In this document: one piece after another, positions 8,479 through 44,453 of the stretch
Position numbering within the stretch: the stretch's first letter is position 1
Layout of the letters: each line of letters begins with the position of its first letter
Source: an uncultured Acidobacteriota bacterium
GTDB taxonomy: Bacteria > Acidobacteriota > UBA6911 > RPQK01 > JAPXNP01
Assembly: GCA_963723965.1 (NCBI GenBank)
Contig: CAVRSV010000016.1
Coordinates: 36,923-100,922 of the forward strand
Length of the DNA stretch: 64,000 nt
Direction of reading: 5' to 3'
Notes under the pieces: generated by a model
Told to the model about the DNA's origin: nothing
What the model saw: the letters and a program-made list of their open reading frames with translations, nothing else
Database searches by the model: none
Position numbers and translations under genes: made by a program

Positions 8479-8540
8479 TGGATACCTCCTTGACGTCACT
8501 CTACCGCAAAGCGCGAAACGCCGTGACGGAAGCGAACGGG

Positions 8541-16245: not shown

Positions 16246-16260
16246 TTGGGGGAGGTGTGT

Positions 16261-19096: not shown

Positions 19097-19111
19097 GGAG
19101 AGGAGCTGGAT

Positions 19112-19870: not shown

Positions 19871-20361
19871 GCGGGGAGCGGCAGTCGTCCAGCCTGGCGG
19901 TCGTCCTGGGAATGGGCAACCTGATCCTGTCCGACGACGGTCTCGGCGTCCAGGCCCTGCACCTGCTCGAACAGGATCCTCGCGTCCCCGCCGGGGCCAG
20001 CCTCGTCGATGCCGGCACCTTCGGGGTGGAACTGCTCGGCTATGTCGCCGGTGCTCGGCGGCTGCTGGTTCTCGACGCGGTCGACGTCGGTGCCGCCCCG
20101 GGGACGCTGATACGTATGGAAGGAGAAGCGCTCTCTCGGTTGCCGGCCGCCGGAAATGCCCACGATGTGAGTCTGGCGGACCTGCTGCTGGCGTTGCGAC
20201 TGATGGGCCAGGAACCCGGGAGTGTCGTCCTGATCGGCATCCAGCCCGCAAGAATCGAGCCGGGCACGGAACTCTCGCAGCCGGTTCGGGCGGCGCTGGC
20301 GAAGCTCGTAGACGCGGCGGTCCGGGAACTGGCCGCCGACGGGGAGTGTCCGGGGCGCTAG
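19867..20361 (+). CDS. hyaD: Hydrogenase maturation endopeptidase (HyaD/HybD family)
   Basis: 164 aa. LAVVLGMGNLILSDDGLGVQA...VDAGTFGVELLGYVAGARRLLVLDAV is the HybD family. ATGA overlap with hyaC. Confidence 0.85.
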   Translation: MSGERQSSSLAVVLGMGNLILSDDGLGVQALHLLEQDPRVPAGASLVDAGTFGVELLGYVAGARRLLVLDAVDVGAAPGTLIRMEGEALSRLPAAGNAHDVSLADLLLALRLMGQEPGSVVLIGIQPARIEPGTELSQPVRAALAKLVDAAVRELAADGECPGR

Positions 20362-25404: not shown

Positions 25405-27008
25405 AACTTCGCGAAGAAGTCGTTTCCCTTGTCGTCCACCAGGATGAAGGCCGGGAAATCCTCGACTTCGATCTTCCAGATCGCTTCCATCCCCAGCTCC
25501 GGATAGTCGAGGACCTCGACGCTGCGGATCGAATCCCGGGCCAGAATCGCGGCGGGACCTCCGATGCTTCCCAGGTAGAAGCCGCCGTGGCTACGGCAGG
25601 CATCGGTCACCACCTGAGAGCGGTTTCCCTTGGCGATCATGACCATGGAGCCTCCATGGGACTGGAAGAGGTCCACATAGGGATCCATGCGCCCGGCCGT
25701 CGTCGGTCCGAAGGAGCCGGACGGCATTCCCGGCGGGGTCTTGGCCGGGCCGGCGTAATAGACCGGGTGGCGCTTGAAGTAATCGGGCAGATCTTCTCCG
25801 CGGTCCAGACGCTCCTTCAGACGGGCGTGGGCGATATCGCGAGCCACCACCATCGTTCCCTTCAGGGAAAGGCGCGTGGCCACGGGATAACGGGTCAGCT
25901 GCGCCAGAATCTCAGGCATGGGCCGGTTGAGGTCCACGGTCACCGGTTCGCCCGCTTCCTCGGCCGTCGCTTCGAGGAGCCAACGCTCCGGGTTCTCGTC
26001 CAGCTGTTCGATCCAGAGACCCTGCCGGTTGATCTTGGCTTTGACGTTGCGGTCGGCCGAGCAGGAGACGCCCATTCCGACGGGACAGGAGGCACCGTGG
26101 CGGGGAAGGCGGACTACCCGGATGTCGTGGGCGAAGTACCTGCCCCCGAACTGGGCCCCAATGCCGCTCGCTCGCGCCGCCTCCAGCAGACGGGATTCCA
26201 GGTCGTGGTCGCGAAAGGCACGGCCCAGCTCGTTGCCGCTGGCCGGCAGCGCGTCGAGGTAACCGGTGGAGGCCAGTTTGACGGTCTTCAAGCAGGCTTC
26301 GGCGCTGGTCCCTCCGATGACGAAGGCGACATGATAGGGAGGGCAGGCCGCCGTGCCCAGCGTCTTCATCTTCTCCACCAGGAACCGTTCCAGGCTCTCC
26401 GGGTTGAGGAGCGCCTTGGTCTGCTGGAACAGGTAGGTCTTATTGGCGGAACCGCCGCCCTTGGCGATGAACAGGAAATGGTATTCACCTCCGGTCGCGG
26501 CGTAGACATCGATCTGCGCCGGAAGATTGGTGCCCGAGTTCTTTTCCTCGTACAGGCTGAGGGGGACGGTCTGGGAATAACGCAGGTTTTCACCCGTGTA
26601 GGCCTCGAACACGCCGCGGCTGAGGGCTTCCCGATCGTCGCCTCCGGTCAGGACGTACTGCCCCTTCTTGGCGGAGATCGTGGCCGTTCCCGTGTCCTGG
26701 CAGAAGGGAAGCTGCCGCCCCGCGGACACGACGGCGTTCTTCAGCAGAGTCCGCGCCACGAAACGGTCGTTGTCGGATGCCTCCGGGTCCGAGAGGATCG
26801 CCGCCACCTTGGCGTTGTGGCTGGGGCGAAGGAAAAACGACACGTAGCGAAAGGCCTCGCGGGCCAGAAACGTGAGCCCCTCCGGCTCGACCTGCAGGAA
26901 TTCGGCGCCGGCGCCGCTGACGGTGCTGACGAACCGGTCGGTCAGGAATTTGTACTGAGTCTCGTCGCTTTCGAGGGGGAAGGGATCCTGATACTGGAAC
27001 GTGGCCAT
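25401..27008 (-). CDS. fumA: Class I fumarate hydratase (single-chain Fe-S hydro-lyase, FumA/FumB type)
   Basis: About 535 aa. [24 protein letters not shown]...[10 protein letters not shown]...[25 protein letters not shown] before ATG 27008 (ORF track start uses TTG). Confidence 0.9.
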
Positions 27009-27099
27009 TTCGTATCCTCTCAATCTGCAGGTTCAAGTCCAGATCCAATCTTCGACCCGACAGCCCACGGATGCAAGTCCGCAACGGTGTTCCGGACTT

Positions 27100-27639: not shown

Positions 27640-27955
27640 GCTGAATTCCGCTCTCCCCGGAACCTCGGAACCCGGAACCTCGGAACCCGGGGGCGTGTTG
27701 CCCAAATGGCTGCGGCCTCCGATCGGCGTGCCCCCACTGGAGTGAGGTCTCGGCAGCCTGATCTCACGCGAAGCCGCGAAGTACGCCACGCCGCAAGGAG
27801 ATTCTTTGTGGGTGGCGGCTTGGCGTCCTTCTTTGCGCCGTTGCGTGGAACCAACCCGCCGTGCATTCGCCTGCCTGGCAGCGTCCGATCCAGCGAAACC
27901 CTTCCTTTTTGGGCAACACGCCCCCGGAACGCGGAACCCGAAACCGCGGGCGCCC
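27640..27955 (-). repeat. Family-B MITE-like element copy 3 (inverted orientation; TIRs 27690-27710 / 27903-27922) with GGAACC(T/C)CG micro-tandems
   Basis: gggggcgtgttgcccaaatgg ... reverse complement of the core ... tttgggcaacacgcccccgg. ggaacctcggaacccggaacctcggaaccc on the left flank. Confidence 0.7.
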
Positions 27956-28494
27956 TACTTGCGCTCGTCGTCCAACTTGCGCAGCTGGCGCAGGATCGAC
28001 AGCAGCGTCGGCTTTTCCTTCATCTGCTCCCGCAACCGCCCCATGACGGCTTCGGGGCTCCACTGATCGGCGGCCTCCTCGATCAGCTGCATGCGCCGCT
28101 GGTCGGTGCTGAATTTCTTGCGCAGGCGGACTGCATAGGCGTCCATGAGCACCTCGAGCAGCTTGTCCATCTCGCAGGGCTTGGACAGATATCCGTAGGC
28201 GCCGAGTTTGGTGCACTCCACCGCCGAGTCGATCGAGCCGTGGCCCGTCAGGATGATGACTTCCAGAAAATCGTGCTCCTGTTTGAGGATCCGCAGCACT
28301 TCCCGGCCGTCCATTCCAGGCATCTTGAGATCCAGGAGTGCCAGATCGAATTTTCCGGTACGGGCGGCCTCGATGGCGGCGGCGCCGCTGGAAGCCTTCG
28401 TCACAGCGAAATCCCTCAATTCCAGGCGTTTGCTGATGGAATCGAGGAACTTCAGTTCGTCGTCGACGATCAGCAGCTTGATTCTTTCCGTCAT
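27955..28494 (-). CDS. Response regulator, receiver domain plus short C-terminal helical tail (no DNA-binding domain)
   Basis: MTERIKLLIVDDE...DLALLDLKMPGMDG...IILTGHGS. Start placed at the internal ATG 28494. Confidence 0.8.
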   Translation of the reverse strand: MTERIKLLIVDDELKFLDSISKRLELRDFAVTKASSGAAAIEAARTGKFDLALLDLKMPGMDGREVLRILKQEHDFLEVIILTGHGSIDSAVECTKLGAYGYLSKPCEMDKLLEVLMDAYAVRLRKKFSTDQRRMQLIEEAADQWSPEAVMGRLREQMKEKPTLLSILRQLRKLDDERK

Positions 28495-28513
28495 TTCCAG
28501 GGTCTCCCGAAGG

Positions 28514-30544
28514 TTAGAAACCGATCCATTGCCAGTAGCCGTAGAACACCCAGATCCAGAGGACGAGGAACGAGAGGACCAGCATGGCCGCTCCGTGTTT
28601 GAGAAAGTCCCCCAGTGTGACCAGTTGCTCGCCCGTGACGGGATCCTTGCAGAGAGCGTAGGCGATCGCGTTGTTCGGAGTCCCGATGACCAACATGTGG
28701 GCAAAGGACGAGGCGAAGGCCGTGGCCAGACCGACCATCCAGGGATGGGTCTGGGTAATGGTCGCCATGGGGATCGTGATCGGTCCGATCGCCGAGACCG
28801 TGGCCCCGTCGCTCATGAAGTTGGTCGTCAGACCGGTGAACAGGCTGGTGGCCATGGCCAAACCCGTGCCGCTCTGCATGAAGGCCGGCAGAATTCCTAC
28901 GAACCAGTCGGCCAGGTAGAGGGCGGCTCCGGTCACGGCAAGACCCTTGCCCAGGGCGGCGGCACTGGCGTAGAGAAAGACGACGTCCCAGGGAATGGCG
29001 ACGATGTCCCTCCACCTCAACACTCGCAGTATGTTGAGCATCACGATGCAGAGAATCGCCGGTCCACCCATGCCGTACCGGTCGCTGACCGTGACCCACA
29101 GAACCACCAGCAGGATGAGGACGGGGGTGGCCCGGATCTCCAGACTGTTCATCGGGCCGATGCGCTCGGCCGCCTCGCGCACGATGGCCGACACGTTCAG
29201 GTTGCGCACGCGCAGCTTCCGTCGGAAGGCCAGGTAGAAGTATCCCCCCGCCACCAGCGCCATGACCGGAACGAATGGCAGTCCGTAGGCTACCCACTGC
29301 CCGAACGTGGGAGCCATGCCGTAGTCGCTCAGAATGGCCAGCATGACCGCGTTCCGACCGCCTGCAGCGGGCGAGCCGGGACCGCCCGAATTGCCGACGA
29401 AGCAGAGCATGAGGGCGAACAGCACCGCGAGGTGTCGGTCCTCGGAGACCCTCGAATGCCGGAGCGACGAGGCGTAGACCATCATGAACAGCGGCATCAT
29501 GAAGGCGACCAGGGCATGCTCGGAAATGAACGAGCAGGCCACGGCAAACATGGGCAGGAACAGGAAGAGCACCATGTTGAGCGACTTCACGGGCCCCAGC
29601 AGCAGAACCCCGATCCGGCGGTCGAGTCCCGTCTTGGTCATGGCCCGTGCAATCGCCAGCACGCCGAAGATGAAGATCACGGCATCTTTGGCGTAGGCGG
29701 CCGCTACCTCGTCCGGCTGCAACACGCCGAGGAAATACATCGAGACTCCGACCAGCAGGGCCGTAATGCCGATCGGGATGGCTCCCGTCGCCCAGAACAG
29801 GGCGGCTACGAGCAGGGTGGCCAGCATGACCTGGGCCCGATAGGCCGACTGGTGGGGCGTCATGGAGTACCGCGCCCTTTGCCCCTCGCTGGCCGGCGTG
29901 AGGGTTCCCACCTTGTACTTCTGGCTGTAGAAATCGGCAATGTTCTGCCCCGGAGCCATGCTCCGGTAATCGGCGTAGCCGTGGCTGAGGTCGGTGACGT
30001 TGCCTGTCTTGGGGGTCCCGACCAGCTGGAGGAGCCGCGCCGGTGCGGGCACCAACACGACGACGAGAAACAGGAGCAAACCGAGGATGATCACGCCGGG
30101 CCGGCTGTTGTGGGAGCCGACCAGCCAGGTCCGCAGCGACCGGGCCAGGTGGGGAATCTCATGCCGGGCCATGGCATGGAGCTTGGCTTCCCGGGCCGCG
30201 TCGATGGTCTGCACCAGCGTCCCGATATCGCAGGGCTTTTCCAGATAGGCGAAGGCGTCGTGCCGGCCCGTTTCCATGGCCGACTCGAGGCTGCCGTGGC
30301 CGGTCAGCATGATGACCTGGACGGCGGGCCGATAGTTCTTGAGTTCCTTGAGGACCTCGTCTCCGGTCATCCCCGGCATCTTGAGATCGAGCACGACCAC
30401 CTCGATCTCGGGATCGTTGCGGGCGATTCGGATCGCCTCTTCGCCGCTGTCCACGTCGAGGGTGTCATAGTTCCTGAGTCTGAGCCGCTTTGCCAGAGAC
30501 TGGCGGAAACCCGTCTCATCGTCGACCAAGAGTACTTTCCCCAT
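28514..30544 (-). CDS. Receiver (REC) domain fused to an ArsB/NhaD-superfamily (SLC13/DASS-like) anion permease
   Basis: N-terminus MGKVLLVDDETGF...VVLDLKMPGMTGDE...IMLTGHGS is a REC domain with the phospho-acceptor Asp context. It is followed by about 500 aa with more than 10 TM helices and glycine-rich hairpin loops (GNSGGPGSPAAGGRNA). Confidence 0.75.
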   Translation of the reverse strand: MGKVLLVDDETGFRQSLAKRLRLRNYDTLDVDSGEEAIRIARNDPEIEVVVLDLKMPGMTGDEVLKELKNYRPAVQVIMLTGHGSLESAMETGRHDAFAYLEKPCDIGTLVQTIDAAREAKLHAMARHEIPHLARSLRTWLVGSHNSRPGVIILGLLLFLVVVLVPAPARLLQLVGTPKTGNVTDLSHGYADYRSMAPGQNIADFYSQKYKVGTLTPASEGQRARYSMTPHQSAYRAQVMLATLLVAALFWATGAIPIGITALLVGVSMYFLGVLQPDEVAAAYAKDAVIFIFGVLAIARAMTKTGLDRRIGVLLLGPVKSLNMVLFLFLPMFAVACSFISEHALVAFMMPLFMMVYASSLRHSRVSEDRHLAVLFALMLCFVGNSGGPGSPAAGGRNAVMLAILSDYGMAPTFGQWVAYGLPFVPVMALVAGGYFYLAFRRKLRVRNLNVSAIVREAAERIGPMNSLEIRATPVLILLVVLWVTVSDRYGMGGPAILCIVMLNILRVLRWRDIVAIPWDVVFLYASAAALGKGLAVTGAALYLADWFVGILPAFMQSGTGLAMATSLFTGLTTNFMSDGATVSAIGPITIPMATITQTHPWMVGLATAFASSFAHMLVIGTPNNAIAYALCKDPVTGEQLVTLGDFLKHGAAMLVLSFLVLWIWVFYGYWQWIGF

Positions 30545-30619
30545 AGCCTCGCTACCCGATCCGCAGGGGCCGCCGGCTCGACCGGCCGCCGCCGTGTCCA
30601 TTTCCGATGTGAAGGAACT

Positions 30620-32320
30620 CTACGTACTCCGCCCGATGGGAAGAGTGATCGTAAACGTGCTGCCTTCGCCGAGATTGCTTTCTACGTCGATCGATCCGCC
30701 CAGGTCCTTGATGATCCCGTAACTGACCGATAGTCCCAGTCCGGTTCCTTTTCCCACCTCCTTGGTCGTATAGAAGGGTACGAAGATCTTGCCCAGCTGC
30801 TCCTGGCTCATGCCCCGGCCGGTGTCGGCCACCGAGATCTCAACCTTCGCTCCGGCCCTGCGTACCCCGACCGTGATCGTGCCCGCCCGGCCCCCGAGTG
30901 CATCCACGGCATTGTTGAGGAGGTTCAGGAGAACCTGCTGCAGCTGATTCGTGTCGGTCAAGACCGGGGGCACGTCGGCCGCGAAGTCGCGGACGATTTC
31001 GATGTTCGAGACGGCCAGTTCGGGACCGAGCAATCCGTCGAGGACCTCGTCGATGACCGTCGCCAGATCCTGGGCGCGAAGTTCCACGCTGGTCTTGCGT
31101 ACGAAGCCCAGCAGCTTGTGGGTGATATTGCGACAGCGCAGGACCGATTCCTCGATGTTGTCCAGATGGGGACGCAGCTCCTGAGCGGGAGTCGGTTCCC
31201 CGAAGGCCGGGTCCATCAGATCCTTGATCAATCCGGCTTCCTCGTTGATGACTGCCAGCGGATTGTTGATTTCATGCGCGATGCCGGCGGCCAGTTCGCC
31301 GACCGAGGCCAGCTTTGAGGCATGGGCCAGCTGGGCCTGGGCCCGATCGCTGGACTTCTGGAGCTCGACCAGCTTGTCGGCGCGACTGAAGATCATGACT
31401 GTGATCAGGCCGATGAGGACCGCCGAGAAGAGCAGCAGCGTGCGCAGCGGCCGGGCCAGGAATCCGGCCGTCGCGGAATTCTGCGGCTGGACGATCAGTG
31501 CCCAGTCGGCCTGTCTGAGCCAGGAATAGGCATAGAAGACCGAAGCGCTTCCGATTCTCACCCACTCCGCGCCGAGCCGGGGTTCGGTCGGAGGCACGAT
31601 CGCCGAGGTCTCCAGGAGCGTGCCCATGTGGGGGGTGACCAGCTGGTAATAACCCTCCTTGTTCACGATGGACAGCAGGAGCTCGTTGTCCCCCTGAAGC
31701 GATCGGATGTAGTCGTAGATTCGTTCCGGGTCGAGCGTGGCTCGCAGGATCGGCCGATCGTGCCCGGACTGACCCTTGACGGCAATCGTGAAGTGCGGTC
31801 GCTGCCGGAATCCCAGGTAGATGTCGGTGATGACGAAATCCTGGTCCGGCCGGCTGAGGGTCTGAAACCAGGATTCGGAGCTGTAGTTGCGGTTCTCGAG
31901 GGACTGGTGGGGGCCGGCGTAGGAGGCCTGGATCCCGCGGGGATCGAAGTATCCGACGTCGACGAAGGTTTCGCTGCTCTTGACCAGTTCCTGGAGGAAG
32001 CCCTGCATCGCCGTCGACGAATGGTCTTCCAGAAAGCGCGGATCGTTGACCAGGTTCCTCAGATTGACGACCCGTTCGGTCAGGAACAGGTTGAGGGTGT
32101 TCGCCTGGTTTTCCGCGATGGCCGTCAGGTGCAGACGGCGGCTTTCTGAAATCAGGCTCTGATATTCGACGGTGAAGTAGAAGACCAGAATGACGAGGGG
32201 CGCGACGTACGTGAAGAGAAGACGCAGGATCTGGCGACGCCGGAACTCCCGGTAATGCTCATCCCCGAAGGGAAGGAAGTCCGCAAGCGAGGGCCATTTG
32301 GCAGCTGACACCTTGCCCAT
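30620..32320 (-). CDS. Sensor histidine kinase with periplasmic double-Cache-like domain, HisKA and HATPase_c
   Basis: TM, about 280-aa extracytoplasmic domain, TM. H-box AHEINNPLAVI. N/G boxes LLNNAVDA...DTGRGM...GTGLGLSVS. RBS GGAAGGGG before ATG 32320. Confidence 0.85.
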   Translation of the reverse strand: MGKVSAAKWPSLADFLPFGDEHYREFRRRQILRLLFTYVAPLVILVFYFTVEYQSLISESRRLHLTAIAENQANTLNLFLTERVVNLRNLVNDPRFLEDHSSTAMQGFLQELVKSSETFVDVGYFDPRGIQASYAGPHQSLENRNYSSESWFQTLSRPDQDFVITDIYLGFRQRPHFTIAVKGQSGHDRPILRATLDPERIYDYIRSLQGDNELLLSIVNKEGYYQLVTPHMGTLLETSAIVPPTEPRLGAEWVRIGSASVFYAYSWLRQADWALIVQPQNSATAGFLARPLRTLLLFSAVLIGLITVMIFSRADKLVELQKSSDRAQAQLAHASKLASVGELAAGIAHEINNPLAVINEEAGLIKDLMDPAFGEPTPAQELRPHLDNIEESVLRCRNITHKLLGFVRKTSVELRAQDLATVIDEVLDGLLGPELAVSNIEIVRDFAADVPPVLTDTNQLQQVLLNLLNNAVDALGGRAGTITVGVRRAGAKVEISVADTGRGMSQEQLGKIFVPFYTTKEVGKGTGLGLSVSYGIIKDLGGSIDVESNLGEGSTFTITLPIGRST

Positions 32321-32439
32321 TTCGTAGCCCCTTCCACTATCGAAAAAGGCGGCAGCGCCCACCGCCCCCCATCGTGTAACATCGAACGCTCTGGAAAGTC
32401 AACGGGTTCCGGAGCCCGGCCAGACGGTTTTCCAGGAGT

Positions 32440-32590
32440 GCCGGGGCTCCCTGGTTCCCGAGGAGTCTGAGAGCAAGATCCACCCCCAACTCCCCTCCCC
32501 CGGTCCTCCCGGTCCTCCGGCCCTCCCGTCCTCCGCGCTCCCTCCCGTCCTCCGGTCCTCCGGTCCTCCCGTCCTCCTCCTCCCTCTCAG
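32440..32590. repeat. Pyrimidine-rich simple repeat (CCGGTCCTC)n on plus, i.e. (GAGGACCGG)n in the 5' region of the minus-strand kinase operon
   Basis: ccggtcctcccggtcctccggccctcccgtcctccgcgctccctcccgtcctccggtcctccggtcctcccgtcctcc, about 12 degenerate units. Confidence 0.85.
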
Positions 32591-33039
32591 CTCCCGATGA
32601 GCTCCCGCACCTCCGCCACCAGCTTCTCCGGATCGATCGGTTTGTCGATGAACTTTTCGGGCTTGACCAGGCCCTCCTCACGCATCTGCCGGATCGTCTT
32701 CTTGAGGCTCTCCCGGAGGCTGTCGTAGGGGCGCTCGAGAGTGTCGGCGTCGGCGCGGTTTTCGTCCTCCTCCAAAACGTCGGCGACCGCGGTCAGCATG
32801 ATCACGGGAATGTGGCGATATCGCTCGTCCTTGCGCAACTGCTTGAACAGTAGAAACCCGCTGCGCTTCGGCATCATCACATCGAGCAGGATCAGATCGG
32901 GCTGGGTCTCCTCGACTTTCTGGAATCCCTCCTCGCCGTCGCCGGCCGCGGTCGGTTCGTAGCCCCCCTCGCGCAGGGCAACCGACAGGAATTTAACGGT
33001 GTTCTCATCGTCGTCGACGACCAACACTTTCTTCGACAT
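32587..33039 (-). CDS. Single-domain response regulator (CheY-like)
   Basis: MSKKVLVVDDDENTVKF...LILLDVMMPKRSGF...IMLTAV. RBS GAGGAGGAG 4 nt before the ATG. Overlaps the upstream kinase by 32 nt. Confidence 0.8.
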   Translation of the reverse strand: MSKKVLVVDDDENTVKFLSVALREGGYEPTAAGDGEEGFQKVEETQPDLILLDVMMPKRSGFLLFKQLRKDERYRHIPVIMLTAVADVLEEDENRADADTLERPYDSLRESLKKTIRQMREEGLVKPEKFIDKPIDPEKLVAEVRELIGS

Positions 33040-34945
33040 CGATCTCCTCCTCTCTGGCCCAGGGACCTTCGATCGGCAACAGCACCCGGAAGCTGGCTCC
33101 CTGACCCGGCTTCGAGCCGACCTCGATCTTGCCGCCGTGGGCGCTGACAGCGCGAGACGCAACCGCGAGCCCCATCCCCGTGCCTTTTTCCTTCTTGGTA
33201 CTGAAGAACGGCGTGAACAGCTTGGCTCGAACCTCCTCCGTCATCCCCTCCCCGTTGTCGGTGACCATGATGCAAACGAACCGCTCGCCGCAGCGTCGGA
33301 CAGCAAGCTCCACCCGAGCTCTCTGGCCCGGGTCGTACTCCTGCCACCCGCACGCATCCAGGGAATTCGACAGGAGGTCCATCACGACGGCATGGATCAG
33401 TTCGCGGTCGCAGAGCACTTCGGGCAGCGGTTCCGCAATCTCGAGCGCCAGTTCGACGTCGTTCTCCCGGAACCTCGGTCCGCTCAGCGTATGAATCCCG
33501 CGGACGAGCTCTCCCAGGTCAGTCGGCATCAGGTCGAGCTTCCGCTCCCTGGCGAACTCCAGCATGCTGCTGGAGAGTCGAGTCATGTGGTCGATCCCCT
33601 CCTGGACCATCTCCCACCCCTCACTCAAAAGCTGCCGATCGTCCTTCGCCAGCCCCGTCTTGACCATGTAGGAACCGCCCTTCAGGACGTTCAGCAGGTT
33701 TTTGACGGAGTGCTGAATGCCGATGAGCGCCTGGCCGAGGGCCGCCATCTTCTCCGACTGCAGGAGCTGGCGTTGCAGGCGCTTCTCCCGGGTGACATCC
33801 TTGCTGATCCCGTAGGTGCCGATGGCCGTCCCGTCCGCCCGGCGCAGGCGGGACAGGGTCAGGATCACGTCCCGGATCCTCCCGTCGATCGTGCGGAAGT
33901 GGGTCTCGTAGTTCACTACGTGATCCGTGTATTCGAGCTGAGCGATGGCGACATCCCGTTCGGCGGGATCGGCAAAGAGCATCTCGATGCGCTCTCCGAT
34001 CACCTCGTCGCGCCGATAGCCGAGCGTGCGCTCGGCGCCTGCATTGAAGGTCTGGATCAGCCCCTGGGGATCGACGGTGATGATGATGTCGGCCGAATTC
34101 TCCACGATGCCTTCCAGATACTCTCGCGTGCGCTTGAGCTTTCGGAGCGTCCCCGAGAGCTGCTCCGTCATTTCGTTGAAGGCGGAGGCCAGCGATGCGA
34201 ACTCATCCGAGCCGTCGTCGTTGAAGCGGAAGTCGAAGTCGGCATTCGTCACTCGGCGGATTCCCTCGGTGAGGGTCTGGATGCGCCTGCCCACGAGGCG
34301 TTGAACCGCCCACCAGGCTGCCAGCGTGCAGAGGAGAATGGCGACGATGACGCCGATGCCCGTCTTCATCCGGTGCTGGGCCACCAGCGAGTCGACGCGC
34401 TGCAGCGAATAGTCGACCCTCAGGTAGCCGAGCGGTCGCTCGACGCCCTCGTGCGTGTGGCAGGAGGCGTTGGCGCAGCCCGCCTCGTTGTAGATGGGGG
34501 TGACGACGGCGAGTATGTTCCTCCCGTCGCCCGCCCTCCAGATGCGGTCGAGCGATCTGATGTCGGTCCGTCCCCGGTCGGCGCCGTCCGTGTGGCATCC
34601 GACACAGGGCCATGTATCCCGCGGCAGCGTGCGGGCGTCCGGTCCGTGGAAGGAGACGACGGTCTGTCCCTCATGCGCGGCCAACTGGATGTTTTCGTAG
34701 ACGGGGTTGTCCTGCGCGAGTCCGCTGACCAACTCCCGGATGCCCTCCAGATCGCGCGTTGCCATGAAGCGATGGAGACCGAGAATGAGGGTTCGCGAGT
34801 CCATTCGGGACACGTCCCGGGCAGAGGCCAGTGCTTCCCGGCGGTCGTCCAGGCTGTTGACGTAGGCGGTGACGGCCCAGACCAGCACGATCAGCGCCGA
34901 GAACAGTCCACTCAGCTTCCAGGCGACCCGGTTGCGTCCGAGCAT
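33005..34945 (-). CDS. Sensor histidine kinase with periplasmic c-type-heme-binding domain (CXXCH), HAMP, PAS, HisKA and HATPase_c
   Basis: Periplasmic segment contains CVGCH (CXXCH) and a second CANASCH (CX4CH-like). Then TM, HAMP, PAS (IITVDPQGLIQTFNAGAERTLGY), H-box, and ATP-binding DNGEGM...GTGMGLAV. Confidence 0.82.
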   Translation of the reverse strand: MLGRNRVAWKLSGLFSALIVLVWAVTAYVNSLDDRREALASARDVSRMDSRTLILGLHRFMATRDLEGIRELVSGLAQDNPVYENIQLAAHEGQTVVSFHGPDARTLPRDTWPCVGCHTDGADRGRTDIRSLDRIWRAGDGRNILAVVTPIYNEAGCANASCHTHEGVERPLGYLRVDYSLQRVDSLVAQHRMKTGIGVIVAILLCTLAAWWAVQRLVGRRIQTLTEGIRRVTNADFDFRFNDDGSDEFASLASAFNEMTEQLSGTLRKLKRTREYLEGIVENSADIIITVDPQGLIQTFNAGAERTLGYRRDEVIGERIEMLFADPAERDVAIAQLEYTDHVVNYETHFRTIDGRIRDVILTLSRLRRADGTAIGTYGISKDVTREKRLQRQLLQSEKMAALGQALIGIQHSVKNLLNVLKGGSYMVKTGLAKDDRQLLSEGWEMVQEGIDHMTRLSSSMLEFARERKLDLMPTDLGELVRGIHTLSGPRFRENDVELALEIAEPLPEVLCDRELIHAVVMDLLSNSLDACGWQEYDPGQRARVELAVRRCGERFVCIMVTDNGEGMTEEVRAKLFTPFFSTKKEKGTGMGLAVASRAVSAHGGKIEVGSKPGQGASFRVLLPIEGPWAREEEIDVEESVGRRRR

Positions 34946-35332
34946 GGTTTCCCAGGGCTTTGAACGGCTTACCTCGCCGGAGTTCGGCCCGCCTCCGGAC
35001 GAGGAGAGACACCTAGATGATACAGATCAGGACCGGTCCTGAATACAGGGAAGGATCGATCGGGACGCAGTTGAGAAAGGCGGCGGGGGGCATCCGGGCG
35101 CACCGGGAATCGGCAGGAGAACCTGCGCTGACCGATTCACGAAAAGCAGAATGTCCCCTTCACTCGACTCCCGAAACTCGAAACTCGAAACCCTGCCGGG
35201 GCCCGACAGTGTTCGATTCGCGACAGGGGTTCGGGGGACGGGGCCTGATAGAATGATCCTCAACACGAGTCGGGAGGGCCGCAGCGCTCTCCTTCCTTTT
35301 TGATCAATCGCAGATTCGCTGGAGGTTCTCCT

Positions 35333-36370
35333 TTGAGAGTTAGATCCATCCGATTCGTCTTTGTGTTTGCCGCAGGGCTCCTGATGAATTCGACAGTGTG
35401 GGGCGGCGGCAACTGTTCGGGCACCAGCACCGGCCTGATTCCGATTACGGAACTGCGGGGCAACTACCAGGGAAGCGCGGGTCTTCTCTATGACGGTTCG
35501 AACCAGCGGCCGGCGGCCCTGACCGCGGCCGCACCGCCCGTCGAGCCGATCGATGGCCGCATTGTCGTCGCCGGGATGGGAATGAGCAACACGTACCAGG
35601 ATTTTTCGGTCTTCCAGGAACTGGCTGCGCAGGACGACTCCATCAATCCGGAGGTGCAGTTCGTCAACCTGTCGGCGGGCGGCTGCGTGGCTCGGGAAAC
35701 CGCCGACCCGTCGAACCGCTGTTGGAGCATCTTTCGGAATCAGCTGGCCGGGGCCGGTCTGTCTTTTGACGATGTCCAGGTCCTCTGGCTGAAGACCACC
35801 AGCACGACGCGGGGCACCGTCTTTCCGGAGAGTGCGCAATACCTGCTCCACGACCTGCAGGACACGCTCAGCGTGGTCCGGCAGCGCATGCCCAACGTCA
35901 AGCAGGTCTACGTGTCGAGCCGGGTGTATGCCGGCTACGCGAGCGTTCCCCTCAATCCCGAACCCTATTCGTACGAAACGGGCTTTGCCTTCAAGGAACT
36001 GGTCCACGACCAGTTCCCCGGGCTCTGGATTTCCTGGGGGCCCTATTTGTGGGCGGACGGGACGAACGTCCGGTCGGATGGCCTGTTCTGGGTTTGCGAC
36101 GACTTTCAGAACGACGGCACTCATCCGTCCCGGTTCGGCAGTCTCAAGGTCGCCCACGCTCTGCTCGACTTCTTCAGGGACGACGCGGTTGCCCGTCGCT
36201 GGTTCCTGGCCGGCGGCAACCCCGGACCCGGTCCCGCACCCGGCCCCGAGGCGATCTCCAGCCTGGTTCAGAGCCTCATCGACGATATCAACAGCCAAAA
36301 CACGACGATCCCCGACATCCTCTCGAGGCTCGAGGACATCCGCGACCGGCTCCTGGCCGAGGGAAACTAG
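35333..36370 (+). CDS. Secreted SGNH/GDSL-like hydrolase-fold protein (putative esterase/acylhydrolase)
   Basis: TTG start with GGAGG RBS 7 nt upstream. Signal MRVRSIRFVFVFAAGLLMNS. C-terminal block DGTHPS matches SGNH block V (DxxHP). Polyproline-glycine linker GNPGPGPAPGP. Confidence 0.5.
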   Translation: MRVRSIRFVFVFAAGLLMNSTVWGGGNCSGTSTGLIPITELRGNYQGSAGLLYDGSNQRPAALTAAAPPVEPIDGRIVVAGMGMSNTYQDFSVFQELAAQDDSINPEVQFVNLSAGGCVARETADPSNRCWSIFRNQLAGAGLSFDDVQVLWLKTTSTTRGTVFPESAQYLLHDLQDTLSVVRQRMPNVKQVYVSSRVYAGYASVPLNPEPYSYETGFAFKELVHDQFPGLWISWGPYLWADGTNVRSDGLFWVCDDFQNDGTHPSRFGSLKVAHALLDFFRDDAVARRWFLAGGNPGPGPAPGPEAISSLVQSLIDDINSQNTTIPDILSRLEDIRDRLLAEGN

Positions 36371-36960
36371 CGGGATTTTCGATTTTCGATGGCCGAATTT
36401 CGATGGCCGATTTTCGATTCGAGCCGTGGCCGGCGAGGGTAATCCAGGCTTCCAGCCTGGCATGTCCAGCGGGCTTCCAGCCCGCCCGGTGCCCTTCCGG
36501 CCCGTCGGGCCAGACTCCATCGGAGGGGGATCTTCCAGAGAGAAGATCACCGCTTTCCTGAGGTTCGTCCTCAGTGGCGAATGGCCGCAACGAAGGGCCG
36601 GGTCGACCGGGAAGAGCCGGGACTCACCTGCCTGTCGGGAGGTTCGGTGGATCGGATCGCCGGACGGATCGCGAACCACGTTGTCGGAATCACTGTCGAC
36701 CACGAGGGTCCCGTGCGCTCCGTTCATGACCGCCGACTTGCGGGGCAGGCTGGAAGTGCGGGAGCTCGCTCCCGCCATCGATCCACCCCGGACGCCCATG
36801 CCGACTCGCACCGCCGGCCGGCGACCAGCCCCCGCCGAAGCCCGGGAGACCCCCCGACCGAGGCCCCTCCTCGGAAAGCGGCAGCAAGCTGCCGCCGTCG
36901 CGCGCCCACGAGCGCCGCGGCAGCGTGGCAGCTCAATCCAAAGCGGCTGCGGCACCGAAT
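36365..36960. repeat. 7-mer micro-tandem (GATTTTC/GATGGCC) followed by Family-C multi-hairpin repeat copy
   Basis: gattttcgattttcgatggccgaatttcgatggccgattttcgattcgag. Then a C-type unit with gaaagcggcagcaagctgccgcc. Confidence 0.7.
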
Positions 36961-37376
36961 TGAATCTCTCGAGCCTCGGATGCCGCCCTGCGGATCTCCC
37001 GGACGACGATCGCCAGACCGTTCCGGCGGGTCGGAGAGAGCTGTGCGCTCAGCCCGATCTCGCGGAGGAAGTAGAGATGGGCTTCGGCGATCTCCCCCGG
37101 CGGCCGGTCATTGAAGACCCGCAGCAGCAGGGAGAGGATGCCCCGGGTGATCAGGGAATCGCTGTCGGCCGAGAAGTGGAGCGTGCCGTCGCGTCGCTCG
37201 CTTCGAAGCCAGACCGTGGACTGGCATCCGGGCACGGCGTGATCGTCGGTCTTCCAGCGATCGTCCAGGCCGGCATGGTCCCTTCCGAGTTCCACCAGAT
37301 GGCCGTACTTTTCCAGGCCGTCCTCGAAGCGGCGGAACTCTTCGACGATCGAGTCCTGGACGTCGTTCAAGGTCAT
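36933..37376 (-). CDS. sufE: SufE-like sulfur acceptor protein
   Basis: 147 aa. Conserved PGCQSTVWL active-site Cys loop. RBS GAAGGACGG before the ATG. Confidence 0.7.
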   Translation of the reverse strand: MTLNDVQDSIVEEFRRFEDGLEKYGHLVELGRDHAGLDDRWKTDDHAVPGCQSTVWLRSERRDGTLHFSADSDSLITRGILSLLLRVFNDRPPGEIAEAHLYFLREIGLSAQLSPTRRNGLAIVVREIRRAASEAREIQFGAAAALD

Positions 37377-37388
37377 CCCTGCCGTCCT

Positions 37389-38678
37389 TCAGTCCGGGAT
37401 CCCCGTCGCGATGGGGTTGGTCTCGTCATTGCTCCACTCGAACCAGCCGCCGTCATAGACGGCCGCCCGCGGCCAACCCATGAGCCAGGCGTTGAAGAAG
37501 GCTTCGCTGGCGCGCCAGCCCGTGCCGCAATAGAAAGCGTTGAACTTGTCCGGCGTGACCCCGGCCTCTTTCCAGAGGGCGGCGATCTCCCCGTATTCGC
37601 GGCAGGTATGGTCCGGATTGCGGTAGTTCTCCATGTGATAGGCGTCGCTGCCGCAGTTTCCGAAGACGGCGCCCGGGATGCGCCCCTTCTTCTCGATGTA
37701 GTTGTAACCGCTGACCTCGCCGATGAACTCGCGCCAGCTGCGGACGCTGACGAGGTTCCTGTCCGGGGCTTTGAGGATTTCGCGGGCCTCCGGAAGGTCC
37801 ACGACGAGCTGCGGACGTCCCGGGATCGGTGCCCCGAACTCCTCGACCGGGTGCCGGGGCGTGTCTTCCGTCGAGACGGAGTGGCCGTCGTCGAGCCAGG
37901 ACTGCAGGCCGCCGTTCAGCACCCGAACATCCCGGACTCCGGCGTACAGCAGGATGAGGGCGCAGCGCATGGCCGCCAGCTGTCCCGCGCTGCTGCCCGG
38001 AAAGGGGTCGGCATTGTCGGGAAAGGAGAATCGCCCGTAGAGAATGACGGTGGTATTGGAGGCGATTCCCAGGTCCTTCAGGGTTCGCTCGAGCTCGGCC
38101 GGCGAACGGCGATTCCACGTCTCGGTGGACTCGAGCGTGTTCGTGTCGACGTCGATCGCGCCCGGGATGTGGCCCTCCTCGTAGGCGCTCCGGTTCTGGT
38201 AATGGGCGTGACAGATCACATAGCTCGAACCCCCGTATTCGGGGGCTGTACCCGACGTGATCAGAGTGTGCAGCCACCAGGCCGGCACCAGCTGGCGGTA
38301 GCGCTCGAGACCCTCCAGCGGAAGGGCCGGATCGGCGCACCACTCGTCGACGAAAGGGAGGTAGATCCGGACATCCGCCCAGCCGGCCCGGCGGAAGAGA
38401 CCGGCGACGCCCTCGACCTGCTGCGCGTCGTCGCCGTACACCACCAGACGCTCCCGGGGCTGGATGCCCTTGGCCCGGACGATTTCCGGCCAGTCCAGGT
38501 AGGAGCTCCATTTAAAGGGCAGATTGCGGGCGCCGGGAAGATGTCCTCCCCGGGGCTCGTCCCGCCTGCGCCATCCGTTATAGGCGTCCGGAGATCGCAC
38601 ATCGATGAGCGTCGAGTCATCGCTCTCCAGACGGGATCGCAGCTGGGCGGTCGTCAATTCCGGCAGATCGTGGGCCAT
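37389..38678 (-). CDS. Triple-rhodanese-domain sulfurtransferase (YnjE-like thiosulfate/persulfide sulfurtransferase)
   Basis: 429 aa, three rhodanese repeats. Catalytic loop FYCGTGWRAS in the last one. RBS AAAGGAGAG. Confidence 0.8.
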   Translation of the reverse strand: MAHDLPELTTAQLRSRLESDDSTLIDVRSPDAYNGWRRRDEPRGGHLPGARNLPFKWSSYLDWPEIVRAKGIQPRERLVVYGDDAQQVEGVAGLFRRAGWADVRIYLPFVDEWCADPALPLEGLERYRQLVPAWWLHTLITSGTAPEYGGSSYVICHAHYQNRSAYEEGHIPGAIDVDTNTLESTETWNRRSPAELERTLKDLGIASNTTVILYGRFSFPDNADPFPGSSAGQLAAMRCALILLYAGVRDVRVLNGGLQSWLDDGHSVSTEDTPRHPVEEFGAPIPGRPQLVVDLPEAREILKAPDRNLVSVRSWREFIGEVSGYNYIEKKGRIPGAVFGNCGSDAYHMENYRNPDHTCREYGEIAALWKEAGVTPDKFNAFYCGTGWRASEAFFNAWLMGWPRAAVYDGGWFEWSNDETNPIATGIPD

Positions 38679-38931: not shown

Positions 38932-40410
38932 TCAGCGACGTCGGAGCAGGGAGCTGCCGAGGAGGCTCTTCAGGAAGAAGAGCACTTCCGTGCGCGATTT
39001 GCGGTTTCCCTCCAGGCGGAATCGCATGGTGAAGCCGACCCAGGCGGCGTAGAGGAAGGCGTAGAACCGGTCCAGGGGAAGCCGCGTCAGGACCGGTTCC
39101 AGCGGTCTCAGAAAGGGGAAGGCGACGATCAGACCGAACAGTTTCTGCAGGCGCTCGTCGCGGCGCTTTTCCGCCGGATCGTCAAAGGCCAGGGCCGAGA
39201 AACTGTTGGTCCGGTCCGGCACAGGTCCGCCGGGCGCCAGATGGCCGCTCTGTTCCGAGTAGGCCGTCAGGTCCGTGCCCGGCAAGGGAAAGAAGAGCTG
39301 ACTCAGGGCCAGATCGGGCCGACAGCGCAGGTTCAGATCGAGGGTCCGACGGTCGATCTCGAGGGGGTGTTCGACGGGCAGGGCCAGCATGTTCTGCGTG
39401 ATGAAGCGGATTCCGTACCGGTGCAGCAGGCCGCTGACCCGGAGGAATTCCCGGTTGGAGATGTCCCGTCTCAGCAGATCGCGGGAGACCGTTTCGTCGC
39501 CCGTTTCGATTCCGAAGCAGACGACCCGGCAGCCCGCCTTCTGGAGGAGCCGGATCTTCTCCTCCGTCACCGTCTTGACGTGCACGTTGCAGTAGAAGGG
39601 AATGCCCACCTCGCGGGGAAAGCGCTCGGCGAAATCCTCCAGCCACGCCGTGTCGCACAGGGTGAAGATGTCGTCGTCGATGTAGGCGAACGAAGTCCCG
39701 TAGCGGGATTTCGTGAGGCGGACCTCCTCCATGAAATTGTCCACACTCCGGCGGCGGAGGATGCGCCCGTGATTGCAGAACAGGGCGTTGTACTTGTGGT
39801 TGAAGCAGTAGCTGCACCGATAGGGGCAGCCTCGCGAGGCGAAGAAGATGTGGCTGCGGTATTCCCGATGTAGCCGGGTACCCCGCGACATGAGCTCGCG
39901 GTCGGGGAAGGGGATCCGGTCCAGGTCCTCGACCAGCGGTGCGGGCGGGTTCCGGATCACCGCCCCGTCGACGTGAAAGTGCATTCCCTCGACCTGCGTG
40001 TAATCGCCGCCCTCGGCGAAGCGCTCCAGAAAGGCCGGGAAGCTGATGTCCCCCTCTCCGATGAGGATGGCATCCACGAAGGGCTGCGACGCCATCTCCG
40101 GCGAGAAGGTGGGATGGGGGCCCCCGAAGAGCAGAAAACACCCGGTGTCGCGGCGAAGCCGGCGAGCCAGATCCTGCAGGGCCGGATACTCGGGGGACAT
40201 GACACTGAAGCCCAGGATGTCCGGCCGGCTCCGGCGGATGCGCTCCAGCAGATCCCCGTACGAAGAATCGTCGCTGATCGCGAGATCCGTTTCCCAGCCC
40301 TGTGACCGGGCGAGGGACGAGAGATACATGACTCCCAGCCGTTCCATCGTGTAGAGATTCTTCACCACGAAGAGAAGGCGGCGTCCGACGGACGTGCGTT
40401 TCGCCTCCAT
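38932..40410 (-). CDS. B12-binding domain radical SAM protein (class B radical SAM, likely C-methyltransferase-type)
   Basis: N-terminal cobalamin-binding Rossmann-like region (DILGFSVMSPEY...LLFGGPHPT). Radical SAM CPYRCSYC. RBS GGAGG before ATG 40410. Confidence 0.85.
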   Translation of the reverse strand: MEAKRTSVGRRLLFVVKNLYTMERLGVMYLSSLARSQGWETDLAISDDSSYGDLLERIRRSRPDILGFSVMSPEYPALQDLARRLRRDTGCFLLFGGPHPTFSPEMASQPFVDAILIGEGDISFPAFLERFAEGGDYTQVEGMHFHVDGAVIRNPPAPLVEDLDRIPFPDRELMSRGTRLHREYRSHIFFASRGCPYRCSYCFNHKYNALFCNHGRILRRRSVDNFMEEVRLTKSRYGTSFAYIDDDIFTLCDTAWLEDFAERFPREVGIPFYCNVHVKTVTEEKIRLLQKAGCRVVCFGIETGDETVSRDLLRRDISNREFLRVSGLLHRYGIRFITQNMLALPVEHPLEIDRRTLDLNLRCRPDLALSQLFFPLPGTDLTAYSEQSGHLAPGGPVPDRTNSFSALAFDDPAEKRRDERLQKLFGLIVAFPFLRPLEPVLTRLPLDRFYAFLYAAWVGFTMRFRLEGNRKSRTEVLFFLKSLLGSSLLRRR

Positions 40411-41690
40411 CAAGGCCTCCCCTGCAGTGCGGCCCGGCCGGAAGGCCGGCAGAAGGCCCGGATCGCATCGATGTTCCGCTCGATTTCGGCGACGGGATAT
40501 CGCGGGTAGGTCGGAAGGAGGACGAGCGACTCGGAGGCCCGCCGGGCATTCGGGCAATCCCGTCGGAAGTCCCGGAACAGAGCGAGATCGGCGCAGTTCT
40601 TCAGGCGATGCGTCGCGATGTCACGGCCCTGGCGAAATGCCCAGTGCAGAAGCCCCCGACTCTCCCGGCACAGAATCGGGAAGTAGGGGAACACGGGGAG
40701 GGCATCGGGCTCCGGGGCGGGCAGCGTCAGACCTTCGAGGCCCGCGAGCCCGGCTCGATAGAGCTCGGCGTGGGATCGCCGGATTTCATTCTCTCTTTCC
40801 AGGCGTTCCAGGCCGCGCATCACCAGCCGCGTCTGGACACCGGTCATTCGACCCCCGTGCGAGGGAGGGACGGCTGTGAGACGGCGGACCGCGGATTCGG
40901 GATCGACGAGCCGGTTCAGGGTCCTGACTTGCCGCAAATGACCCCAGCGAAAGATGGGATAGGTCAGTCGGGTGAAGAGTGCCGGCCAGGTCGCGACGTC
41001 CGTCGCCAGCCCGAGACCGGTCAGTCCCAGGAGTCGCCAGAGGGGAAGAGGCGGCATCTGTTCGACTTCGCTTCGGATCCTTGCGGTCAGGTCCTGGGAC
41101 GGCGAGGCGAGGAGGCCCCCCCGCCAGCCGGTCAGATGTTTGTACATCCCGAAGCTGAAGACGCCCACCTCTCCCCAGGTGCCCAGGGATCGACCCCGTT
41201 CGGAGGCCCCGAAAGCCTGGGCCGCATCCTCGATCAGAGGCAGCCCGTGCTTCCGGCAAATCTCCCGGAAGCGCGCGGCCCCCGCCGTCTGGCCGAAGAG
41301 ATGCGTGATCAGAACGGCACCGGTCCGGGGGCCGAGGAGTCGCTCCACTTCGACGGGATCGATGTGGCAGCCCCCTGACACCACATCGGCGAAGACCGGA
41401 ACGGCGCCGGCGGCGATCACCAGACTCACGACGTCGGCGATGGTCAGAGGGGACAGGATGACCTCGCTCCCGGGGGGAACGAGCGCCCGCACCGCCAGGA
41501 AGATCCCCGTGCGTGCGGCCGGAACGCACAGGGCGTGCGGGGCTGGAAGGCGGTCTTCGAGGATCCCTTCGAGATGCGCCGCTTCGCGCGCCGGGTCCGG
41601 GCGCCGAAGCACGGCTGCCACGGGCAACCCGTAGTGGGAGCGGGAGGTATAGAGCCGGAAACGCGGGTGTGGGGTGGCCTGGCCGCTCAT
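40410..41690 (-). CDS. DegT/DnrJ/EryC1/StrS-family PLP-dependent sugar aminotransferase
   Basis: 426 aa. ...VILSPLTIADVVSLVIAAGAVPVFADV..., FSFGMYKHLT (PLP-Lys region). Overlaps flanking genes. Confidence 0.85.
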   Translation of the reverse strand: MSGQATPHPRFRLYTSRSHYGLPVAAVLRRPDPAREAAHLEGILEDRLPAPHALCVPAARTGIFLAVRALVPPGSEVILSPLTIADVVSLVIAAGAVPVFADVVSGGCHIDPVEVERLLGPRTGAVLITHLFGQTAGAARFREICRKHGLPLIEDAAQAFGASERGRSLGTWGEVGVFSFGMYKHLTGWRGGLLASPSQDLTARIRSEVEQMPPLPLWRLLGLTGLGLATDVATWPALFTRLTYPIFRWGHLRQVRTLNRLVDPESAVRRLTAVPPSHGGRMTGVQTRLVMRGLERLERENEIRRSHAELYRAGLAGLEGLTLPAPEPDALPVFPYFPILCRESRGLLHWAFRQGRDIATHRLKNCADLALFRDFRRDCPNARRASESLVLLPTYPRYPVAEIERNIDAIRAFCRPSGRAALQGRP

Positions 41691-43267: not shown

Positions 43268-43279
43268 AGCAACAACCGA

Positions 43280-44326: not shown

Positions 44327-44453
44327 GAAGCTGACAGTTGTCTGTTGTGTCGCCGTTCCCGCTGTAAGTATACTGACTCTTACCGCGCACAGGTAGCCAT
44401 ATTTCGCCGCTTCGAGGTGGGGCTGCACAGGGGGCGAAGGTTCGGCGGAGACG

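Follow-up and report, generated by a model that had tools for sequence, protein, structure and literature searches.

A two-motif c-heme Cache sensor kinase and its receiver partner in an uncultured Acidobacteriota bacterium: a putative periplasmic redox or small-ligand sensor

What might be sensed by a membrane-bound histidine kinase that carries two c-type heme attachment motifs outside the cytoplasm, and which process would such a sensor serve? This question is raised by a stretch of 64,000 nucleotides (nt) of DNA from an uncultured Acidobacteriota bacterium (GenBank assembly GCA_963723965.1, contig CAVRSV010000016.1, positions 36,923 to 100,922 of the forward strand), the whole of which is referred to below as the window. 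It encodes a 646-residue sensor kinase, followed directly by a small stand-alone receiver protein, which we call REC1. By sequence and profile comparison the kinase belongs to the Geobacter-type c-heme Cache sensor family in its two-heme form, a kind of protein that is already recognised and experimentally untouched. We consider it reasonably likely that the kinase is a dimeric transmembrane protein whose single-Cache periplasmic input would hold two covalent c-type hemes and pass a redox or small-ligand switch on to REC1. The elements of the kinase gene and of its input domain, with residue numbers in brackets, are:

33005..34945, minus strand: sensor histidine kinase open reading frame (ORF), 646 residues, ATG start at 34945; orthologs at 66-77% identity in Acidobacteriota metagenome-assembled genomes (MAGs)
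34859..34915, minus strand: transmembrane segment 1, TM1 (11-29), from hydropathy and a continuous AlphaFold2 (AF2) helix over residues 4-62
34304..34360, minus strand: transmembrane segment 2, TM2 (196-214), from hydropathy and an AF2 helix over residues 182-211
34361..34858, minus strand: predicted extracytoplasmic single-Cache (PDC/PAS-like) domain with two heme c motifs (30-195), from AF2, Foldseek and the profile match to 3B42/3B47
34592..34606, minus strand: CVGCH (114-118), the additional heme c motif, carried by a short helix that lies between strands beta2 and beta3, in a segment about 16 residues longer than that of GSU0935
34451..34477, minus strand: CANASCH-T-H (157-165), a CX4CH motif at the canonical sCache_heme position together with His165; aligns with CQSCH of 3B42/3B47
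34763..34765, minus strand: Met61, predicted distal axial ligand of the canonical heme, present in 117 of 118 domains and aligned with GSU0935 Met60

An identical protein is called on an independent public contig, and the ATG at 34945 is supported because the N-terminus (MLGRNRVAWKLSG...) is kept in orthologs and the sequence upstream of the ATG is not. Since there are two transmembrane segments, Arg and Lys residues ahead of TM1 and after TM2, and a HAMP domain past TM2, residues 30-195 are predicted to be extracytoplasmic. A previous sequence-only reading of this locus had proposed a periplasmic loop of about 150 residues between two transmembrane helices and had held that a cytoplasmic CXXCH segment would speak against its interpretation. 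Topology prediction placed that segment outside the cytoplasm; hydropathy, flanking charges and the HAMP domain supported the periplasmic assignment, and only the length of the loop had to be corrected, to 166 residues.

Both motifs named in that reading were located in the loop, CVGCH at residues 114-118 and CANASCH (CX4CH) at residues 157-163 (nt 34457-34477). The loop contains exactly four cysteines, all within these two motifs. In composition-preserving shuffles, two or more CX2-4CH motifs arose at P~1e-4 over the whole protein and at 3e-5 within the loop, and by this sequence measure the two heme motifs are not due to chance.

A full HMMER scan with kinase residues 1-202 against 1.84 billion cluster representatives identified 443 relatives at E<=1e-3, 65 of them at E<=1e-10. 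Word-indexed protein searches with the domain or the alignment returned only 1 and 4 matches, a result that reflects the search method and not the rarity of the domain. A CXXCH motif followed by a CX2-4CH motif 33-50 residues away was found in 133 of the 150 best relatives, the second motif being CX4CH in 129 of these, CX2CH in three and CX3CH in one; the other 17 were mostly truncated fragments. Positions M61, C114, C117, H118, C157, C162 and H163 are invariant or nearly so, and a histidine directly follows the second cysteine of both pairs in every full-length relative. Other strongly conserved positions in the 118 full domains were Asn153 (115 domains), Leu172 and Gly173 (117 each) and His165, in the CH-x-H position (110 domains, 93%). 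His91 is invariant in the subgroup that holds the window protein; the wider family mostly has Lys there. The labels attached to the clusters of these relatives were only generic (e.g., "NtrC family sensor kinase"). Among 69 full-length members the domain was accompanied by HAMP in 65, HATPase_c in 57, GGDEF in three and the signalling domain of methyl-accepting chemotaxis proteins (MCPs) in three. Together, these architectures indicate that the two-motif domain is an input module of membrane signal transducers, mostly kinases.

An AF2 model of the periplasmic domain, built with a 38-sequence alignment, had a mean predicted local distance difference test score of 88 and a predicted template modelling score of 0.81. 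It consisted of helices over residues 4-62 (TM1 running into the domain), 66-79, 114-121 (carrying CVGCH) and 182-211 (running into TM2), and strands over residues 83-90, 94-99, 132-137, 143-152 and 171-180, with CANASCH in the loop ahead of the last strand. Confidence was lowest near both motifs, as is expected in a cofactor-free model. Foldseek comparison of the model with the PDB retrieved the Cache/PDC sensor domains of WalK, KinD, CitA and DctB, and the modelled domain thus has a single-Cache fold.

No Pfam or NCBIfam model scored above threshold on kinase residues 1-215, which gave only weak matches to dCache_1 and PF21563 ("Mcp40H-20_sensor"); membership of the class III cytochromes c3/c7 or of other paired-CXXCH families was rejected on the same result. 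PF21563 was matched by 26 of the 38 aligned family members at E<=0.01, the best at 2.4e-7. A profile made from these 38 members matched 3B42 (E=7.5e-10) and 3B47 (E=4.2e-7), the structures of the periplasmic c-heme sensor domains of GSU0935 and GSU0582, respectively, two chemoreceptors of Geobacter sulfurreducens. An alignment to Geobacter-type heme sensors had been suggested by the sequence-only reading, and the profile matches indicate homology. Two stretches of 3B42 were aligned, the N-terminal helices and the C-terminal strands. In the first, the invariant Met of the family stood opposite chain residue 26, which corresponds to Met60 because the numbering is offset by 34 (chain His110 is His144); in the second, C-x4-C-H stood opposite CQ--SCH, with a two-residue insertion. 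The segment with CVGCH (profile positions 100-131) did not align with GSU0935. Residues C157, C162 and H163, together with M61, therefore reproduce, at the level of aligned sequence, a heme c site that is proven by crystallography.

The axial heme ligands of GSU0935 are His144 and Met60, and in both domains the heme is high-spin when oxidised and becomes low-spin on reduction as Met60 binds (PMC8396549). Met60 is displaced by nitric oxide (NO) in both redox states and by CO in the reduced state, and the midpoint potentials are -156 mV for GSU0582 and -251 mV for GSU0935 (PMC8396549). Twelve signal transducers of G. sulfurreducens have the c-heme signature CX2-4CH, and two of these, GSU0591 and GSU0599, carry the motif twice (Pokkuluri et al. 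2013, PMC3831638; 2021 review, PMC8396549). The two-component protein GSU0599, GSU0591, Adeh_2011 as well as Adeh_3383 are described as homologs of the GSU0582/0935 sensors with an extra heme motif (PMC3831638, PMC8396549).

The cytoplasmic part of the kinase comprises the following elements:

34154..34300, minus strand: HAMP domain (216-264), Pfam PF00672, E=1.1e-9
33779..34120, minus strand: cytoplasmic PAS domain (276-389) without a FixL-type heme ligand, from Pfam and PDB alignment
33710..33712, minus strand: His412, predicted phospho-acceptor in a divergent H-box, GIQHSVKN; a near-invariant alignment column, with the H-box also present in orthologs
33068..33409, minus strand: HATPase_c domain (513-626), Pfam E=1e-22, with N, G1, F and G2 boxes read from the sequence

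The domain order HAMP, PAS, HisKA and HATPase had been proposed previously, and Pfam confirmed all of it with the exception of HisKA, which was not detected in the window kinase although the H-box with H412 is present. HisKA was detected in 45 of the 69 full-length family members, and the H412 column is almost invariant in the alignment of those 69. With the HATPase_c boxes and the histidine of the dimerization and histidine phosphotransfer (DHp) region, the sequence is that of a two-component histidine kinase. The best match of the cytoplasmic PAS domain in the PDB was FixL (E=4e-7). The proximal heme ligand of BjFixL, His200 of the F-alpha helix, aligns with an Arg in the window kinase, and because of this substitution the PAS domain was rejected as a FixL-type heme-b domain.

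The protein encoded directly downstream of the kinase is its predicted cognate partner:

32587..33039, minus strand: stand-alone receiver REC1, 150 residues, whose start overlaps the 3' end of the kinase gene by 35 nt
32881..32883, minus strand: Asp53 of REC1, predicted phospho-acceptor, invariant in 11 orthologs and aligned to PleD and CheY-type receivers
32659..32781, minus strand: REC1 residues 87-127, an expanded alpha4 region about 28 residues longer than in PleD and CheY-type receivers
32347..32366, minus strand: terminator-like hairpin with a T-run, between REC1 and the next gene, which encodes a dCache kinase

REC1 follows the kinase directly, usually with an overlap, in every related locus with enough sequence (L002-L011, L034-L040), and both the pairing and the overlap are kept across phyla. 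The REC1 orthologs have 146-150 residues. The match to PleD and CheY-type receivers covers residues 1-86 and 128-147, and the acidic pocket and active site are represented by D9/D10, D53, T83 and K133. Residues 87-127 stand in place of about 13 residues of the alpha4 region, and this insertion is conserved in sequence (ERPYDSLRE...MREEGLV) in all orthologs. The prediction that the partner regulator lacks an output domain was borne out, as Pfam detected none in REC1. The NCBIfam DVU0259 model gave 85 bits, below its cut-off of 160. REC1 is thus like CheY, DivK, CpdR and the DVU0259 family in being a receiver only, with the same acidic pocket, and differs from them in its expanded alpha4 region and in having no che genes nearby. 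No CheA, CheW or MCP genes were identified in the related loci or, within the window, among the ORFs scanned with Pfam, which account for the greater part of it though not the whole, so the chemotaxis-like signalling that had been suggested for the pair is unsupported. Most of the 224 nt that separate the REC1 and dCache kinase genes are taken up by a tandem repeat rich in GGAGGAC/GGGAGG (periods 8, 16 and 43) at 32490-32586.

Based on the behavior of the Geobacter domains, we propose the following course of signalling. Heme 2 would be attached at C157/C162 with His163 as proximal ligand, at a site equal to that of the single heme of GSU0935 and GSU0582, and its distal ligand would be Met61, which sits on the N-terminal helix extending out of TM1. 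Heme 1 would be attached at C114/C117, with His118 as proximal ligand, on the helix inserted between beta2 and beta3. By analogy, a change in the redox state of heme 2, or the binding of a ligand (NO, CO or possibly a sulfur species), would cause Met61 to bind or to leave, and since Met61 lies on the helix continuing from TM1, such switching would be expected to move the transmembrane helices. The signal would pass from TM1/TM2 through HAMP and PAS to the DHp region and change the autophosphorylation of His412, from which the phosphoryl group would be transferred to Asp53 of the translationally coupled REC1. As REC1 has no DNA-binding domain, it would have to act by protein contacts or by a further relay. 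The most plausible role for heme 1 is that of an electron-entry or tuning centre, by which heme 2 would be coupled to cytochromes of the periplasm. Which residue is the distal ligand of heme 1 is uncertain; His165 is a candidate, and would fit such a role because it is highly conserved and absent from the single-heme Geobacter domains, and His91, invariant in the narrower subgroup, was weighed as well.

As in GSU0935 and GSU0582, the window domain lies between two transmembrane helices and is followed by HAMP, has a Cache/PAS-like fold, bears a heme c motif ahead of the last beta-strand, in a loop or helix, and has a predicted distal Met on its N-terminal helix. Unlike those proteins, it has a histidine kinase output instead of an MCP, CX4CH instead of CXXCH as the canonical motif, a second CXXCH on an inserted helix, and His165. 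With GSU0591, GSU0599, Adeh_2011 and Adeh_3383 it shares the extra heme motif and the CX2-4CH signature, motif placement being compared by literature description only; those proteins are from Desulfuromonadota and Myxococcota, whereas the window protein is from Acidobacteriota. DcrA of the sulfate reducer Desulfovibrio vulgaris, also compared by description, similarly combines a periplasmic CXXCH heme sensor with a heme-free cytoplasmic PAS domain, although its output is an MCP; it was proposed to sense redox potential or O2 (PMC8396549). The heme-b PAS proteins FixL and DosP are similar to the window kinase in that its cytoplasmic PAS domain is closest in the PDB to FixL, and differ in that the heme predicted here is periplasmic and c-type. 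A 2026 preprint (Deshpande et al., PMC12889525) reclassified the GSU0582/0935 domains together with DUF3365/Tll0287 as "sCache_heme" and did not mention diheme or CX4CH forms. The window domain is of the same concept as that family, in which a Cache fold with an inserted CXXCH element for heme c is joined to HAMP-kinase, MCP or GGDEF outputs.

The gene context of the kinase was considered in related loci, which were gathered by a single-protein scan. The closest full-length kinases were found in Acidobacteriota MAGs, at 77% identity in loci L002 and L003 and 66-67% in L004-L006. In L004 and L006, aprBA-qmoABC lies on one side of the kinase-REC1 pair, and on the other side is a second, Qmo-like/DsrJOP-like cluster, a further copy beside the canonical aprBA-qmoABC. 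The same type of cluster is co-directional with, and nearly abuts, the pair in L005, L008-L011 and the P0008 contig. It encodes QmoA'B'C'-like proteins, a membrane-anchored DsrJ-like triheme cytochrome (133 residues, three CXXCH motifs), a Tat-signal 4Fe-4S protein that is DsrO/NrfC-like and a DsrP-like protein of the NrfD family. Judged by its gene content, the cluster looks like one for a hybrid Qmo/DsrJOP membrane complex. Its positions, and those of the kinase orthologs without a heme domain in the same set of loci, are:

L004, 10472-15903: Qmo-like/DsrJOP-like cluster
L005, 2141-7853: Qmo-like/DsrJOP-like cluster
L006, 9759-16553: Qmo-like/DsrJOP-like cluster
L009, 914-7828: Qmo-like/DsrJOP-like cluster
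L010, 1041-7720: Qmo-like/DsrJOP-like cluster
L011, 991-7776: Qmo-like/DsrJOP-like cluster
L008, 1374-2927: kinase ortholog without heme domain
L009, 7842-9389: kinase ortholog without heme domain
L010, 7794-9275: kinase ortholog without heme domain
L011, ~8001-9362: kinase ortholog without heme domain

Other loci had neighbours of a similar kind: a DsrC-domain protein, a siroheme-synthase-like gene and DsrMK in L034/35, Qmo-like genes in L036, and siroheme-synthase-like and URO-D genes in L037/38. Among remoter family members, one is encoded behind an NrfD gene (P0027) and one beside Nuo (P0045). In total, roughly 10 of 14 informative loci had sulfur-respiration neighbours. From this synteny in the relatives, and not from the window itself, we infer a tie of the kinase-REC1 pair to dissimilatory sulfur respiration and to NrfD-type quinone-interacting membrane complexes. 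The context of the orthologs suggests that the kinase responds to the redox state of the electron transport chain in anaerobic sulfur respiration. Its most likely function is that of a periplasmic heme sensor of redox state or of a small ligand, with a link to anaerobic (sulfur) respiration. The sulfur-metabolism papers searched did not mention the kinase/receiver pair.

Several observations weigh against the proposed diheme sensor and its setting. The kinases of the window, L002 and L003 are not adjacent to sulfur-respiration genes. The kinases of L008-L011, from Zixibacteria and Phycisphaerales, are 46-49% identical to the window kinase in the cytoplasmic part and have the HAMP-PAS-kinase order and the H-box GIQHSMKN; they have a short loop between the transmembrane segments and no heme motif, yet the REC1 partner and the neighbourhood are kept. 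As these orthologs have no periplasmic domain, the kinase lineage can sense something without hemes, and the diheme domain is an input added in the Acidobacteriota branch of a lineage already tied to the complexes. In the L004-L006 orthologs, Pro or Glu stands in place of His165, the candidate distal ligand of heme 1. The window protein scores only 17.0 bits against PF21563, for which the gathering cut-off is 27, and has no match to PF11845 (DUF3365) at E<=10; nor did the family profile match Tll0287 (5B82) at E<=10, and membership of the sCache_heme/DUF3365/Tll0287-like group by Pfam or 5B82 match was therefore rejected. Within the 64-kb window there are no genes for cytochrome c maturation, and no protein other than the kinase has a CXXCH motif. 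Finally, the literature search found no biochemical or structural study, and no heme-attachment experiment, on any two-motif member.

Other explanations of the domain were considered alongside a redox sensor. A sensor of NO (or CO) has a precedent in the ligand binding and Met60 displacement of GSU0582 and GSU0935 (PMC8396549) and in the NO-sensor-like properties reported for sCache_heme domains fused to signalling outputs (PMC12889525). We nevertheless think it unlikely, as the NO sensors that have been tested are in the single-heme DUF3365 branch, to which the window protein has no match, and neither in the window nor in some 15 related loci does the kinase have NO-detoxification or denitrification genes beside it, the neighbours being sulfur/quinone redox complexes. 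Gas-sensing and redox mechanisms are not mutually exclusive. It is far harder to believe that the domain binds no heme at all and that its four cysteines form a Zn or Fe-S site, or a pair of redox-active disulfides serving as a thiol-based periplasmic redox switch, an idea that we regard as highly improbable. Four cysteines in two pairs could in principle ligate a metal, the CX4C spacing is unusual for heme, and no biochemical work on two-motif members was found. Heme sites of the CX4CH and CX3CH types do, however, occur in cytochrome c3-type proteins. A histidine also stands behind the second cysteine of both pairs in every full-length relative, the second pair aligns with a crystallographic heme c site whose axial ligand is matched by the invariant Met, and the published signature of the sensor family is already CX2-4CH (PMC8396549).

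The remaining alternative draws on the neighbouring genes of the window. The sequence-only reading had pointed out an uptake hydrogenase and a class I fumarase, and both are present, the former as a [NiFe] hydrogenase small subunit, large subunit and cytochrome b set at 16246-19870 and the latter at 25401-27023. The kinase might accordingly sense H2, the quinone pool or O2 for the hydrogenase, or might belong to a C4-dicarboxylate/fumarate circuit with the fumarase and a module of a dCache kinase, a receiver-DASS fusion (REC-DASS) and a second receiver, all of which lie within the window; this module, followed by the fumarase, also comes after kinase-REC1 in its two closest relatives, L002 and L003. 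We consider these connections quite improbable. The hydrogenase is 13 kb from the kinase, behind MFS, sulfatase and NhaA genes, and adjoins none of the approximately 15 related kinase loci examined. The module is inverted relative to the kinase in L002 and L003, is absent near it in L004-L006 and stands alone, without an adjacent fumarase, in L043 (Acidobacteriota) and L044 (Zixibacteria, beside DsrC-DsrM-DsrK), and the gene of the dCache kinase is set apart from REC1 by the terminator-like hairpin. Neither the hydrogenase nor the fumarase is kept beside the kinase in relatives other than L002 and L003; a functional tie to either is not supported, and linkage of the kinase to the hydrogenase, the fumarase or the DASS gene was rejected on the synteny of related loci. 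Of the proposed periplasmic redox sensing, then, the heme-sensor part is well supported by homology, and the parts on H2, the hydrogenase and the fumarase are not supported.

Returning to a diheme sensor tied to sulfur respiration, a more specific role can be imagined. The kinase and REC1 may be dedicated to the feedback regulation of dissimilatory sulfur respiration, in Acidobacteriota as well as in neighbouring phyla. In such a regulator, the diheme Cache domain would exchange electrons directly with the Qmo-like/DsrJOP-like complex on its periplasmic face, through its triheme DsrJ-like cytochrome, or bind a sulfur intermediate, and REC1, with its expanded alpha4, would act post-translationally on the respiratory complex or a transporter and not on DNA. 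We offer this as speculation, and doubt that it is correct in all these particulars.

The module beside the kinase-REC1 pair (27955-32362, minus strand) is of interest in its own right and comprises:

30620-32320, minus strand: dCache_1 histidine kinase
28514-30601, minus strand: receiver fused to the N-terminus of a DASS/SLC13 anion symporter, annotated as 676 residues
27955-~28500, minus strand: second small receiver protein (REC2)

Based on its arrangement in the related loci, the module appears to be a system separate from kinase-REC1. Its REC-DASS protein is 100% identical to an NCBI protein from an Acidobacteriota MAG (296-kb contig), and Acidobacteriota and Zixibacteria have at least 120 clusters of the fusion, with identities of 65-87%. 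The fusion suggests a transporter that would be controlled directly by phosphorylation, with sulfate or dicarboxylate as the candidate substrate.

Elsewhere in the window, genes for a triple-rhodanese protein and then SufE are located upstream of the kinase (36933-38678, minus strand), an arrangement kept in L002. Within the window, the kinase has no sulfur-related neighbour other than these two sulfur-transfer genes. An ORF of 356 residues (35300-36370, plus strand), hydrophobic at its N-terminus and matched by no Pfam or NCBIfam model, is divergent from the kinase gene; it is present on the identical Logan contig L001 and was not found in L002. The hydrogenase region (16246-20361, plus strand) includes a short ORF downstream of the hydrogenase subunit and cytochrome b genes, which form a membrane-bound uptake-type set. 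At 38932-48597 there are genes for a B12-binding radical SAM protein, a DegT-type aminotransferase, a GT2 glycosyltransferase, a radical SAM/SPASM protein and a 1042-residue methyltransferase-PMT_2 fusion, a cluster that looks like a glycan or lipid modification locus. The region 498-15026 encodes a GH9 cellulase, a large outer-membrane beta-barrel protein and three alpha-amylase-family/CBM48 proteins, genes of polysaccharide use that are typical of soil and peat Acidobacteriota.

Sensors of the c-type-heme Cache type are among the few known ways in which bacteria read redox conditions or gases outside the cytoplasm, and the single-heme members are the only ones studied so far. The window locus is a clean example of a large two-heme branch, with at least 443 clusters at 50% identity, mostly HAMP-kinases, and M61, the two motifs and H91/H165 are clear enough for the design of mutants. 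Regulation of dissimilatory sulfur metabolism in uncultured Acidobacteriota and Zixibacteria was not discussed in the papers searched, and the placement of the orthologs beside apr, qmo and dsr-type genes makes the kinase-REC1 pair a candidate regulator of that metabolism in these organisms. For the window alone, the result is the correct annotation of a known sensor type and not a new mechanism. The most interesting by-product of the analysis is the conserved association of this kinase-receiver pair with genes of dissimilatory sulfur respiration in uncultured phyla.

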